Below are positions 8,999 to 14,436 of a DNA stretch of 41,329 bases, piece after piece (the first letter of the stretch is position 1; the number at the start of each line of letters is the position of its first letter). The notes under the pieces were generated by a model. It did no database searches, was not told the origin of the DNA, and saw nothing but the letters and a program-made list of their open reading frames with translations. A program made the translations under genes and the position numbers. The DNA comes from a virus, in UHGV virus genome UHGV-0077431, one strand, 5' to 3'.

Positions 8999-9916
8999 TT
9001 ATCGCTTGGCTTCGCCGCCGAGAGAGGTTGTTAATCCGTTAATGAGAGAGATAAGCTCGCCGGTCATCAGAACAAAGTCAGCGTCGAACCGCTGAGCCGC
9101 ATCCTCACGGTCGATATCGTCGTTTTGTTCTGTAATCTCATTAGAGAACTTAAGGCGTTTGATGCTGCCGTCATCGCAAAGAACGAACTGAATGCGCTGT
9201 TGCCAGTCGATAGACAGCTTTGTAACTACTTTGCCAGCTTCCAGATGCACATGAATTTCGTCACTGACCAGAGTCTGTTTTTTAAAGCGTCCAATACCGC
9301 CATCTTCAAGAATAGCTTTCAGTTCGGCTTCATCACCCAGGCCAAAGCCAGCAGGCGCACTACCGGAACGAACCCAGTCGGTCATAGTTAGTTCGATCGG
9401 CGTTTCCATAGTCAGCGGTACCACCGGGAGAGAACCGAGAGTTTTACGAAGCAGGGCCAGTGAGTCTTCGGCACGTTTAGCGCTGGCTGCATCAACCATG
9501 ATCAGACCGTCGGTGACGTTGATCCACAAACCAACAGTCGAGTTTTTGGAGAACGCCCGAGGAAGCAGGGAGTGCAACACTTCATCACGCAGCGAATCTT
9601 TCTCAGTTTTTTTGAGGCGACGCCCCTGATCGGATTCCAGACGCGACACACGCTTGCGCAGTTCTTCAGTAATGACAGGAGATGGCAGTATTTTTTCTTC
9701 CCGGCGAATAACCAACAACACTTGATTATTGACAGTGTGATGCAAGCGATCTGACAGCTGACCAAGTGGTGATACCCAACCGGTTTTTGCCATATCCTGG
9801 CTACCGCATGGAGTGAAGCGAAATAGTTCAAGCTGCTGTTCCAGCTCTTCCTGGTTGATGGTGAAATCGCGACTAATGCGATACACCAACATATTTTTGA
9901 AAAACGGATTATTCAT
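8999..9916 (-). CDS. rdgC: Recombination-associated protein RdgC homologue
   Basis: Near full-length similarity to E. coli RdgC as recalled ([42 protein letters not shown]). Confidence 0.85.
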
Positions 9917-10228
9917 TCTCGGTTCCTCAGCGCATCTGCACAGACGCTAAAAAGTTAGTTTCTCCATACACAACAGAGAAGGGCACCTGCATTGGTCGGC
10001 GGCTTGCAGAGACCGCTTTCTTTTTGCCCGGGTGGATTGGGTTATGAGCCCGTCGCCCGGTGATGCCCTTTTCTGTTGTGCCCTGAAAAAGGCTGGCGGT
10101 TACCGGAAATACACGGGAAAACACCGGGCCGCCAGAACAGGGAGTTACTTGTTATTGCTTTAGCCTGCTTTTAACCACATCAGGCGCGGTGGTATCTTGG
10201 TGTTCTCACACAACCAAGAGGGATGTTT

Positions 10229-10426
10229 ATGGGCGCTTTTGATAACCAGGAAATTACGTTACCCGCATGCCCTAAGTGCGGCACTAAGACGAAGAAGAAA
10301 ATCGCTTGGCTCAAGTCGAACAAAAGTTTCACTTGTCGATGTGGAGCTACTATCAATGTCAACAGCAGCCAGCTTACTTCCGAAATCAGGAAGGTTGAGG
10401 ACAAGCTGAAGAAGCTCTTTAAATAG
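10229..10426 (+). CDS. Small C4 zinc-ribbon protein (65 aa)
   Basis: GAGGG 6 nt before ATG; CPKCG...CRCG; followed by intrinsic terminator. Overlaps antisense with 10259..10624. Confidence 0.45.
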   Translation: MGAFDNQEITLPACPKCGTKTKKKIAWLKSNKSFTCRCGATINVNSSQLTSEIRKVEDKLKKLFK

Positions 10427-10624
10427 TTTTTTATCGACTGATATTATTTCGTTATCAGAGGTTGGTTTTTCAGCCTCTGATTTTTTAGTCAGGATCATTT
10501 TTTCTACACATGTGACTACGCATTCCGAACAGATGGCAGGTTCGTCCTTACCACCTTTTGCGACGATCTTTATCGCTCCCAGTTCGGTTGCTCCGCAAAA
10601 TGAGCATGTGAATAAATGATTCAT
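10259..10624 (-). CDS. Small protein with ClpX-type N-terminal zinc-binding domain
   Basis: CSFCG-x7-KIVA-x8-ICSECV-x2-C matches the ClpX ZBD pattern; GAGG 5 nt before ATG at 10624; C-terminal third is antisense to 10229..10426. Confidence 0.5.
   Translation of the reverse strand: MNHLFTCSFCGATELGAIKIVAKGGKDEPAICSECVVTCVEKMILTKKSEAEKPTSDNEIISVDKKLFKELLQLVLNLPDFGSKLAAVDIDSSSTSTSETFVRLEPSDFLLRLSAALRACG
10454..10486 (+). terminator. Intrinsic terminator (ATCAGAGG stem, T6 tract), plus-strand only
   Basis: 8-9 bp stem followed by TTTTTT on plus; A-rich on minus. Confidence 0.7.
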
Positions 10625-10729
10625 GTAAACCTCTACCCCCAACCTAAGTTTTCTGTCAGCGAATCATCCGGTTATTCATATGCCACCGGCGGCTACTTCG
10701 TGGGCGTCCTGCCTGTTCGCTGTTGATGA

Positions 10730-10810
10730 ATACATAATTAACCAATGGCTAATATTTGTAAACAACCAATAGTTAATTTTTGAGTGTTTAGGAATTAACT
10801 CAATGATTTT
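10730..10810. promoter_or_regulatory. oL-like operator/promoter region
   Basis: AT-rich intergenic region with repeated GTTAAT/ATTAAC motifs also present at oR (GTTAATTTTTG at about 10772 versus GTTAATTTTG at 12524). Confidence 0.45.
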
Positions 10811-10880
10811 TAATAAAATACATTTTGTTGTTAAGTGATGACGTGCTTAAAAAAAACACCATCTACAAAAGAGGAGTGTT

Positions 10881-11087
10881 ATGGAACGTGATGATCTGGA
10901 AGAAGACCGCGCAGCGTTCATTGCTGGCGAGATAGGCGGAGTGGTGATTCAGTTAATCATCGAAGGGATCGAAATCAACCGTGATAATATCGTTGAGTAT
11001 CTGGAGGCAAAGCGTCGCGCGGTTGGTAACGTGATCCACAAAGGCTTGCTGAGAGATGCTGCGGAATTTGTGAGGAAAGGGCAATAA
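10881..11087 (+). CDS. Hypothetical protein (68 aa)
   Basis: AGAGGAG 5 nt upstream of ATG; ends at a shared terminator. Confidence 0.55.
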   Translation: MERDDLEEDRAAFIAGEIGGVVIQLIIEGIEINRDNIVEYLEAKRRAVGNVIHKGLLRDAAEFVRKGQ

Positions 11088-11112
11088 AAACCCGACGCGG
11101 TGGTCGGGTTAG
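11088..11112 (-). terminator. Terminator ending the cI operon (CCCGAC stem, U5 tail on minus strand); possibly bidirectional
   Basis: Hairpin cccgac-gcggtg-gtcggg with TTTTT on minus-strand RNA directly after the stop of 11109..11300. Confidence 0.6.
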
Positions 11113-11300
11113 AACAGGAGTTTAACTGCGGCTAGGGTCAGACCTGTGATTGTAAAGATCGCACCAACTATCGACCAAGTCTGAATCCTGAGTTCCTTTT
11201 GTAGGTCTTCTCGTGTCGCGTAATTAGACTTGATAACAGCAACATCAGTCTTAATGGACGCGATATCTACCTCAAGCTGCCTAACTCTTGCTTCAAGCAT
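11109..11300 (-). CDS. Small coiled-coil protein with C-terminal transmembrane helix (63 aa)
   Basis: GGAGGTGA 5 nt before ATG at 11300; heptad-like [23 protein letters not shown] then hydrophobic [22 protein letters not shown]. Track ORF extends to 11423. Confidence 0.55.
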
Positions 11301-11367
11301 ATCATCACCTCCGCCATCTCCGCCTCGTCGTGTTATTGCAGGTAGTTCACTATTAAATGGTACTACA

Positions 11368-11715
11368 TTATTTTGCGGCGTCGGCATTTTTTTCATCTTC
11401 CGTTTTTGCCGGGAATTTTTCATTTACCCAGTTAAGAACTGAAAACGCATTTATATGTGTTTCATTTCCACAATTGTTGCATATTAGTGAAAAGTAATAC
11501 TGGTTAGCAGTATCGGAATAAATGCTTTTTTCAGTAAAAACATTTACATAACTACCAAGCGCCATAGTGCATGGCATTCCAACACTCGCACTGACTTGAG
11601 GCACCGTTAACCTGTCATGCCCACATAGCGTGCATTTTAGATATATATTCTTTTCTGAGAAGTAAGAGACTAACATGTCCATGTTGATCCTTTCGAACCC
11701 CTGTTCACTCGCCAT
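11368..11715 (-). CDS. Cys-rich putative zinc-binding protein (115 aa), first gene downstream of cI
   Basis: CTLCGH ... CNNCGN motifs; GAGGA 8 nt before ATG. Confidence 0.55.
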
Positions 11716-11731
11716 TCACATATCCTCAGAG

Positions 11732-12466
11732 TTAAAGTCGATTATATTTAATTGACTCATGAATCAATGCCTTACCCATGACATAAAGCTGATCCTGATT
11801 CGCCTCATTGATGTACCACTTTTCATATGCAGAGTTATCAGACAGAACAGCGAGCTTGTCACCTTGCATCTGTAGGCGCTTAACATGAAACGTCTTACCG
11901 TATACGAAAGAGTAAACACCGTCGGTCTGGAAGTGACGAACTGAGATGTCGACGAATAGTCGATCACCAGAAACGAGGGTTGGTGACATACTGTCGCCGT
12001 TAACAGTCATGACCTTCACATCTTCTGGATCGCGATTTCCAAAAAGCACTCGGGCATGTTCAGTCGTGAACTCAATGGCGTACAAGACTTCAACATAGTC
12101 AGAAAGCATGTAGGTGCCAGGTCCAGCACTGACAGATAAATCCAGAACTTCAACGCGATAAACATCCTGCTCTGGCTTATTAACCATGCGTTTCACTTCC
12201 CCTGTATCTGTTGGCTCACCAACACCGTATTCCAGCCATTCGGCACGTACACCAAGTACTTTACTGAGAGCCACTATTTTCTGACTGTCCGGTATGGCCT
12301 GGGCGTTGAACCACTTCCAAACTCCAGGTGTAGTGATCTCCACCCCGGCTTTATTAAGCAGGTCTGCAAGGTTTTTGTTTCGTCCCCGACCAGTTAATCC
12401 AGCAAGTTGACAAACTTGCAGCAGCCTAGTCGTGAAACCTTCTTTCGTTTCGTCTCTCTTAACCAT
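11732..12466 (-). CDS. cI: CI-type prophage repressor (HTH + LexA-like S24 peptidase domain)
   Basis: C-terminal VNGDSMSPT...HVKRL (Ser/Lys dyad context); divergent from cro across an operator-rich spacer. Confidence 0.9.
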   Translation of the reverse strand: MVKRDETKEGFTTRLLQVCQLAGLTGRGRNKNLADLLNKAGVEITTPGVWKWFNAQAIPDSQKIVALSKVLGVRAEWLEYGVGEPTDTGEVKRMVNKPEQDVYRVEVLDLSVSAGPGTYMLSDYVEVLYAIEFTTEHARVLFGNRDPEDVKVMTVNGDSMSPTLVSGDRLFVDISVRHFQTDGVYSFVYGKTFHVKRLQMQGDKLAVLSDNSAYEKWYINEANQDQLYVMGKALIHESIKYNRL

Positions 12467-14145: not shown

Positions 14146-14436
14146 CCCAACCTCATTATTGATCATGCTTTATTCCAGGTATACACTGTCTCGGCAGCGG
14201 CAAAATCCGTTGCCGGGATTGGCGTCCTGGAATTGATTAAAGAGCACAACCGCGCTCTGGCGGTTTTTTTGTGCGAAATGCATTGCTACACCCTGATTAT
14301 GGTGGGGCGTGCAGGGGCATCGAAAGATGCGCCGGCTTCTTTAGTCACCGGTTACGCCAACCCTGCACGTCTCACCACCAATGAGATTGGCGTCTCTTGT
14401 GGTGAGTTGTTAAAACTGACTAAAGAGGCAGCCATC

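Follow-up and report, generated by a model that had tools for sequence, protein, structure and literature searches.

Organization of the locus

The window analyzed here is a stretch of 41,329 nucleotides (nt) of virus genome UHGV-0077431, and our subject is a pair of convergent open reading frames (ORFs) that lie in it beside the operator region oL (Table 1). The plus-strand ORF, which we call ZR, encodes a small zinc-ribbon protein, and the minus-strand ORF encodes a protein whose N-terminus resembles the zinc-binding domain (ZBD) of ClpX. The two overlap by 165 nt in exact antisense codon register (their left-hand ends, 10229 and 10259, both equal 2 mod 3), with codon position 2 opposite position 2 and position 1 opposite position 3. 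We consider it probable that these are two real convergent genes sharing 165 bp in antisense register, one being a ZR cassette and the other the first gene of the PL operon with a tail derived from ZR.

The surroundings are the immunity and early-left region of a lambdoid prophage, and the region from 10150 to 10700 is 100% identical to a prophage of E. coli Nissle 1917. An earlier note on this DNA had described both ORFs, a Shine–Dalgarno (SD) sequence, a CPKCG...CRCG motif and a plus-only terminator at this place, beside oL, and all of them were found there. The oL operators overlap a minus-strand promoter, and the same operator motif occurs at 12459 and 12515 (the oR region), beside a CI-like S24 repressor gene. 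This overlap and recurrence make the minus ORF the first gene behind oL/PL, and it was always the first gene past the S24 repressor in the loci compared. No N-like gene was recognized; the ZBD gene occupies the N position.

Database records disagree on which of the two frames is a gene. RefSeq (PGAP) annotates the minus ORF alone and drops ZR, in at least 41 E. coli genomes, under the product name “ClpX C4-type zinc finger protein” or, in one genome, “Clp protease”. The RefSeq entry for the 121-amino-acid (aa) minus ORF (NZ_CP171242.1, 2177292-2177657) conflicts with the GenBank Nissle record CP007799, in which ZR is the hypothetical gene ECOLIN_10270, and older GenBank records also annotate the 65-aa ORF.

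Table 1. Coordinates of features at the ZR and ZBD genes, numbered from the first letter of the window.
Feature	Position	Strand	Description
Portable leader	10163..10222	+	GCCTG..CAGGC, CCAC..GTGG, GTGGTATCTTGG, CTTGG..CCAAG, GAGGG; ends in the ZR ribosome-binding site (RBS)
Plus ORF (ZR)	10229..10426	+	65 aa, CPKCG-x18-CRCG
ZR intrinsic terminator	10454..10487	+ only	12-bp stem 10454-10481, then TTTTTT
Minus ORF	10259..10642 from TTG, or 10624 from ATG	-	121 aa from ATG; from the ORF list
Linker and tail of minus ORF	10259..10489	-	Residues 46-121 and stop; through the ZR terminator, then antisense of ZR codons 65-12
ClpX-type C4 ZBD	10490..10624	-	Residues 1-45 of minus ORF, N-module of first PL gene
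PL leader RNA	10658..10725	-	~68 nt, between PL and the ZBD gene
PL-like promoter	10762..10734	-	-35 TTTACA, -10 AATTAT (promoter scan)
oL operators	10738-10752, 10763-10777		TTAACC-N3-GGTTAA type; overlap PL

ZR is a conserved zinc-ribbon gene

ZR was searched exhaustively with HMMER against 1.84 billion representatives, and 331 clusters matched at E ≤ 1e-3, nine of them at E ≤ 1e-10. Nearly all of the homologues are stand-alone proteins of 62–76 aa that align across query residues ~2–63. Their consensus, M..FD...I.IPC..CG.KT.K.I.W.K.N..F.C.CG..I..DS, is followed by an amphipathic helix, and C17, W27, C36 and C38 are invariant in the family. We defined the family as proteins of 60–76 aa with CxxC-x18-CxCG, a Trp between the knuckles, a C-terminal helix and a full-length HMMER match, and ZR has all of these. 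An AlphaFold2 (AF2) model of ZR built with the family alignment had a zinc ribbon and a helix at residues 47–64, at a predicted local distance difference test score (pLDDT) of 76.7. None of the zinc-ribbon profiles compared was matched above its cutoff by ZR, which scored 17.8 against Lar (cutoff 28.6), 16.9 against YnfU (cutoff 36) and likewise below cutoff against the others.

Comparison at the DNA level covered 22 distinct versions of the locus from Escherichia, Kluyvera, Serratia, Shimwellia, Ewingella and metagenomes. Down to 63% protein identity, the 22 versions retain a ZR ORF of 65 codons with the same ATG and SD, and also the four Cys and the Trp. Both frames are open in these versions except in a frameshifted contig (L043) and a C36Y variant (L037). 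In the first (L043/L135) a 1-nt deletion frameshifts ZR and the minus ORF becomes 147 aa; in the lineage of the second (L037/L131) the Cys36Tyr change removes one zinc ligand. Each of these could represent decay of ZR or a sequencing error.

ATG 10229 lies 7–8 nt past GAGGG, and other clades begin at its equivalent, whereas the alternative ATG at 10223 is too near the SD. The start, the SD and the first 11 codons are conserved though they lie outside the minus ORF. Past the stop codon a hairpin stands at a constant distance in every clade, with stem sequences that differ between clades; the T-run after it is clear in the E. coli group only. The hairpin has no U-run and no terminator site on the minus strand, and it falls inside the linker of the minus ORF. 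The ZR module is not confined to this part of the prophage genome, as it also sits between lysis and terminase genes, where its antisense ORF is present too. ZR is thus a real gene that RefSeq has overlooked, and it is the evolutionarily primary of the two frames. We considered whether the absence of ZR from databases signifies that the minus frame is always preferred and rejected this, since gene callers take the longer ORF and HMMER found the family.

A ClpX-type zinc-binding domain at the N-terminus of the minus ORF

The N-terminus of the minus ORF (MNHLFTCSFCG...ICSECVVTC) matched zf-C4_ClpX (PF06689) over residues 6–41 with an E-value of 7.6e-6. At 26.2 bits the match missed the PF06689 gathering cutoff of 27 by 0.8 bit. 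A related N-module from the first PL gene of another locus (L142) scored 34.1 bits, above the cutoff, homologues P0001, P0012 and P0013 have precomputed PF06689 matches, and the ZBD of the present protein matched the stand-alone 70-aa family phrog_5259 at E 2.8e-20. On this basis we treat the N-module as a divergent member of the PF06689 domain family. Its C6, C9, C31 and C34 are in register with Cys14, 17, 36 and 39 of ClpX (E. coli ClpX ZBD structures 2DS5 and 1OVX; also 6VFS). The ClpX resemblance proposed in the earlier note therefore held for the four Cys in register and for relatives above cutoff, but the score of this protein itself is below cutoff and the likeness covers only ~45 of its 121 residues.

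In common with the ClpX N-domain (PF06689; 1OVX, 2DS5-2DS8), the N-module has the CxxC...CxxC treble-clef pattern, CSFCG, K-(I/L)-(V/I)-A and IC(S/D)ECV..C. It differs in a 3-residue insertion (KGGKDEP vs GPSV). In contrast to ClpX, the minus ORF has no AAA+ module (the NCBIfam ClpX equivalog models matched over their first ~70 positions only, at 15–21 bits against cutoffs >350), is encoded by a phage as its first early gene, and carries an added tail of 76 antisense-encoded residues.

Stand-alone ZBD homologues are 66–82 aa in length. Salmonella prophages have a stand-alone 66-aa orthologue at the same genome position, as the first gene past the repressor, and it is followed by convergent morons, e.g., bssS. 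We found no paper on stand-alone phage ClpX-type zinc fingers. That the ZBD could mimic ClpX or titrate its ligands is a guess from homology. The ZBD is most likely a dimerizing or ClpX-related peptide-binding module rather than a bare decoy; such a dimerizing or ClpX-interfacing role fits at least as well as titration, because the ZBD is recurrently fused to cargo-linked domains (see below).

The tail of the minus ORF belongs to the ZR cassette

The minus ORF ends opposite Leu11 of ZR, whose codon (TTA in 19 of the versions, CTA in three) reads as a stop on the other strand. Peptides encoded in the tail include LFKELLQLVLNLPDFGSK and LEPSDFLLR. Homologues of the tail (~60 C-terminal residues, ..DKxLFKxLLQLVLNLPDxGS...LEPSDFLLRLSAALRACG) were found only as C-termini behind unrelated N-termini, and wherever ZR is present the tail is joined to one of at least seven unrelated N-modules. 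Besides the ZBD these are an AlpA-type helix-turn-helix (two versions), PF27050/phrog_1273, phrog_1744, a 226-aa protein, two further N-termini and a 30-aa stub. Elsewhere, N-modules of this kind are complete stand-alone phage families: phrog_5259 (the ZBD) of 70 aa, phrog_1744 of 68 aa and phrog_1273 of 103 aa. Since the same tail follows unrelated N-modules at every ZR locus, it is part of the ZR cassette rather than of the zinc finger.

The gene upstream was free of stop codons through the ZR hairpin and the antisense strand of ZR in 22 of the 22 versions. We found no ZR locus whose upstream gene stops before ZR, either in all loci compared or in a pattern scan of viral contigs, which gave no further loci. 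As no stop codon lies ahead of them, residues 46–121 are almost certainly translated, and from its sequence the minus ORF would almost certainly be read into the overlap unless its transcripts end there. In the part of the minus ORF that is read before ZR is reached, the minus frame varies in the manner of coding sequence, with changes at positions 1/2/3 of 7/7/12, 5/5/11 and 42/33/59, and linker codons across and past the hairpin show a position-3 bias, with AHDEF among the conserved residues. The “ClpX zinc finger protein” of the databases is therefore a chimera of a real ZBD and, over its C-terminal two thirds, an antisense image of ZR. The earlier note had left open whether this is a true overlap or an antisense shadow; the answer is mostly a true overlap, in which ZR is real and primary and the C-terminal two thirds of the minus ORF are its antisense image.

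Selection within the overlap

Parsimony on the 22 sequences gave 218 events, distributed over ZR codon positions 1/2/3 as 76/34/108. Because position 3 of the ZR frame varies most, the possibility that only the minus frame is under selection is excluded. The codon columns point the same way: 13 are fixed in ZR but differ among the tails, and one shows the reverse. Opposite the fixed ZR Cys codons, the tail residues alternate between Thr and Ala. ZR is clearly the dominant constrained frame in the overlap.

To describe changes in both frames we use two letters, the first for ZR and the second for the tail, with S for synonymous and N for non-synonymous. The NS/SN ratio of 0.48 points to constraint on the ZR frame. 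Doubly synonymous sites evolve faster than sites that are synonymous in ZR and change the tail (SS/SN = 3.2), and changes that are non-synonymous in both frames stand at 0.74 relative to those that change ZR and are silent in the tail (NN/NS). As controls, ~17 gene families from the same loci were each compared with their own in-register antisense frame, and gave SS/SN of 0.3–2.3 (typically ~1.1) and NN/NS of 0.74–2.15. The SS/SN of ZR was thus the highest of all genes tested and its NN/NS tied the lowest, which is suggestive of extra constraint on the tail frame.

A portable leader and related cassettes

The leader that precedes ZR is not particular to it. Its core pattern was found in 100 IMG/VR contigs (loci L053-L152), in which at least 20 small genes, unrelated to one another, have it 11–15 nt 5' of their ATG, and it extends over ~60–75 nt across prophages. 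Helix 1 covaries (GCCTG/CAGGC in 54, GCCCG/CGGGC in eight and GCCGG/CCGGC in three, i.e., T-A, C-G and G-C at one pair). Helix 2 covaries as well, with CTTGG/CCAAG here and GCTGG/CCAGC in the cryptic prophage e14 of E. coli K-12, in which the leader precedes ymfI (NC_000913.3, 1201425-1201479). The leader had no Rfam match, and a scan of 9880-10900 gave nothing credible at E ≤ 5. It may be a promoter or 5' untranslated region platform, or a boundary at which cassettes are exchanged.

The e14 locus has the same order as the one studied here: the S24 repressor ymfK (cohE), PL with the same leader RNA, the first early gene ymfJ and the convergent cargo ymfI. Neither YmfI (113 aa) nor YmfJ (102 aa) shows a sequence relationship to ZR or the ZBD protein, and the 3' ends of ymfI and ymfJ overlap by a short 63 nt, whereas here nearly the whole cargo is covered. 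YmfJ is induced late in SOS and was detected as a protein (PMC11002266). In the literature we found ymfI and ymfJ in expression tables only.

In nearly all leader cassettes the first PL gene ends within the 3' part of the cargo, overlapping it by 1–200 nt. This first PL gene is modular. Its C-terminal part co-varies with the convergent cargo and its N-module varies independently (L057, L062, L120, L125, L142, L069 and L078; with other cargo, L091/L052/L105). At least four versions have a ClpX-type ZBD as their N-module, among them the 34.1-bit match given above, and others have a phrog_1744-like module, AlpA or none. In one cargo family, the part linked to the cargo forms a genuine non-overlapping domain (VNGA..NAVAADY..EANxSGxTIxH) with variable sites of 29/25/54, and this VNGA..NAVAADY partner domain also exists as a stand-alone 79-aa protein. 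This modularity suggests that cargo and first PL gene form cargo/partner gene pairs. Because the sister cassette has a real partner domain, the prior is raised that the ZR tail is likewise the partner of its cassette, overprinted on ZR, though by analogy and not as proof. The cargo families tested had no PADLOC match, and their sole Pfam match was to a domain of unknown function. The leader and cassette system appears to be undescribed.

Morons are autonomous promoter-gene-terminator units in lambdoid prophages, e.g., bor and lom of lambda. Like them, the ZR cassette is a small, exchangeable accessory gene within an operon with its own upstream control region and terminator. It differs from morons in that it is antisense to the early operon, lies inside another ORF, has a candidate promoter only, and shares one covarying leader with many cargos. 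Antisense overlapping gene pairs have been reported in bacteria and phages, and many are disputed. The pair described here resembles them in having two long ORFs with position 2 opposite position 2, both conserved in relatives. It differs in that the short ORF is demonstrably the older and that the overlap of the long ORF is an extension on interchangeable N-modules.

Interpretation and alternative explanations

ZR would be an autonomous, moron-like cassette composed of the leader, the RBS, the 65-aa protein and a plus-only terminator, and one of many alternative cargos that e14-like lambdoid prophages carry at this spot, convergent with PL. As the ZBD module has no stop codon of its own, ribosomes would run on through the ZR terminator and the antisense strand and so add 76 residues. 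In the lysogen, a CI-like repressor would shut PL and ZR alone could be expressed. On induction, PL transcripts beginning with the 68-nt leader RNA would pass the orientation-specific terminator and run antisense over ZR, which should silence it, and the ZBD-tail protein would be the first early protein. Whether the tail is a selected partner polypeptide rather than a neutral run-on we judge to be about even. Tentatively, and with distinctly less than even confidence, we propose that the ZR cassette is a sense/antisense two-gene module, composed of a zinc-ribbon protein for the lysogen and a cognate partner borne on the C-terminus of the first early protein.

Several results weigh against these readings. 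ZR had no match in Pfam, NCBIfam, PDB, BFVD or PADLOC, and a sigma-70 scan found no promoter in its leader, where an extended -10-like TGgTATCTT was seen by eye only. With respect to the tail, its central segment varies freely opposite the fixed Cys and Gly of ZR. It also folds poorly in the AF2 model of the 121-aa minus protein (pLDDT 57.5), a confidence too low to judge the tail by. The SS/SN signal comes from 18 events spread over a few sites, and ratios of 2.0–2.3 were also seen in small control genes. We had also considered the avoidance of stop codons as proof of selection on the tail, as 5.1–5.2 stop-creating ZR-synonymous events were expected and 0–1 observed. This was rejected because control genes also shun TTA, CTA and TCA, with most control families having antisense stops at ~0.2–1.1 of expectation (typically ~0.6) and RdgC two observed versus 12.4 expected. 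It was also rejected because the in-register antisense frame is fully open in a distant ZR homologue that stands alone and has no gene convergent to it.

Alternatively, the tail may be a neutral run-on that arose after cargo exchange by recombination, with ZR and the ZBD functional and the 76 residues simply tolerated. We regard this as a serious alternative that comes fairly near to an even chance. The Lys/Glu/Asn-rich composition of ZR would delay the first antisense stop until Leu11, the open frame is intrinsic to ZR even in the distant stand-alone homologue, and codon bias accounts for the stop avoidance. The low AF2 confidence for the tail and the 13:1 column asymmetry in favor of ZR are in keeping with neutrality, as are the scatter of 1–200 nt in the overlaps with other cargos and the fact that the same N-module families elsewhere end ~10 residues past the domain (58–80 aa; P0013, 66 aa). 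However, all of the unrelated N-modules, at least seven, are joined in the frame that reads the whole tail, and no ZR locus was found with an upstream gene that stops early. The highest SS/SN and the tied-lowest NN/NS among the genes tested, and the genuine cargo-linked partner domains in other cassettes, likewise weigh against a tail that is simply tolerated.

It is also conceivable that the ZBD protein is effectively short, the message being truncated by the hairpin, by processing or by pairing with ZR mRNA, and the non-stop products tagged by transfer-messenger RNA. The strong GC hairpin in the linker of every clade, together with the 66–82 aa length of the stand-alone ZBD homologues, would fit such truncation. 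We nevertheless think it improbable, as no U-run follows the hairpin in the minus-strand direction, expression of the PL genes farther along (rdgC and others) requires read-through, and the linker codons across the hairpin show the position-3 bias and conserved AHDEF of translated sequence. Finally, the RefSeq view that the 121-aa minus ORF is the sole gene and ZR its antisense shadow has the PGAP annotation of at least 41 E. coli genomes, the greater length of the minus ORF and a word-indexed search that found just one near-identical ZR cluster in its favor, but we give it hardly any credence, because ZR aligns over its full length with hundreds of stand-alone proteins that were called independently, has its own leader and terminator, conserves its start, SD and first 11 codons outside the minus ORF, keeps its Cys codons fixed opposite Thr/Ala, and varies most at its own position 3 rather than that of the minus frame.

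The PL leader RNA and neighboring features

Between PL and the ZBD gene lies the PL leader RNA, which was 85–97% identical in ~50 phage records from at least 11 genus-level name groups and was present in most loci compared, e14 included. Carriers include ST64B, SfV, SfII, ZF40, YeP1-3 and phages of Pantoea and Aeromonas, and it is partial in T5-like Providencia phages. A hairpin in it, CCGGU..ACCGG, has compensatory double changes at three of its five pairs. Folding of the single sequence was no better than that of shuffles (z = +1.0). The HK022 putL antiterminator RNA lies immediately downstream of PL (PMC9378689), and the PL leader RNA described here is likewise directly past PL. It differs in its predicted form, an outer stem enclosing two hairpins as opposed to the two tandem stem-loops of putL. 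We considered the PL leader as a homologue of HK022 put and rejected this, since it shows no evident sequence likeness to the HK022 PL leader and its helices are arranged differently. The RNA may serve in antitermination.

On the far side of the ZR leader, between it and rdgC, is a ~240-bp non-coding stretch (9957-10194), whose counterparts in phages phiNP, Flotzy and LLS are ~86% identical to it. It had no Rfam match and contains a lambda boxB-like sequence, GCCCTGAAAAAGGC, at 10080-10093 (+). In the other direction, a small plus-strand ORF (10881-11087) lies between cI and oL, and two minus-strand ORFs (11109-11423 and 11368-11715), one with CxxC pairs, are in the position of rexAB; none of these three had a family match. 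A terminator at 11110-11089 (-) closes the cI operon. Since Nissle 1917 lacks the 10881-11715 genes at the equivalent place, the window is a mosaic relative of its prophage. Downstream of the replication/ant region, two adjacent plus-strand Rfam matches, isrK (14194-14270, 74.6 bits) and C4 antisense RNA (14295-14382, 81.2 bits), were found as a pair.

Significance

These results have a direct consequence for annotation, in that the RefSeq records of dozens of E. coli genomes, including that of the probiotic Nissle 1917, list the ZBD protein and omit ZR, a gene with a family of its own. The locus is also a useful test case for antisense overlaps, in which the age of the partners is usually unclear. 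Here there is no doubt that ZR is the older partner, and single mutations that are silent in ZR would allow a test of the younger frame.

If the ZR cassette is a two-gene module as we tentatively propose, the partner would neutralize or redirect the cargo on induction while antisense transcription silenced it simultaneously, and with the ZBD as N-module the partner could tether the cargo to ClpXP. The e14-like prophages would then carry a hypervariable slot of convergent cargo/partner cassettes that share one portable structured leader. The recurrent ZBD N-modules offer a concrete starting point for asking whether phages engage host proteolysis through the fold of the ClpX N-domain. More broadly, the portable leader and the cargo/partner pattern represent a previously uncharted accessory-gene slot that is common to e14 of K-12 and many enterobacterial prophages, and such a slot is the expected place for defence or exclusion functions expressed in the lysogen and for countermeasures to them at the time of induction.

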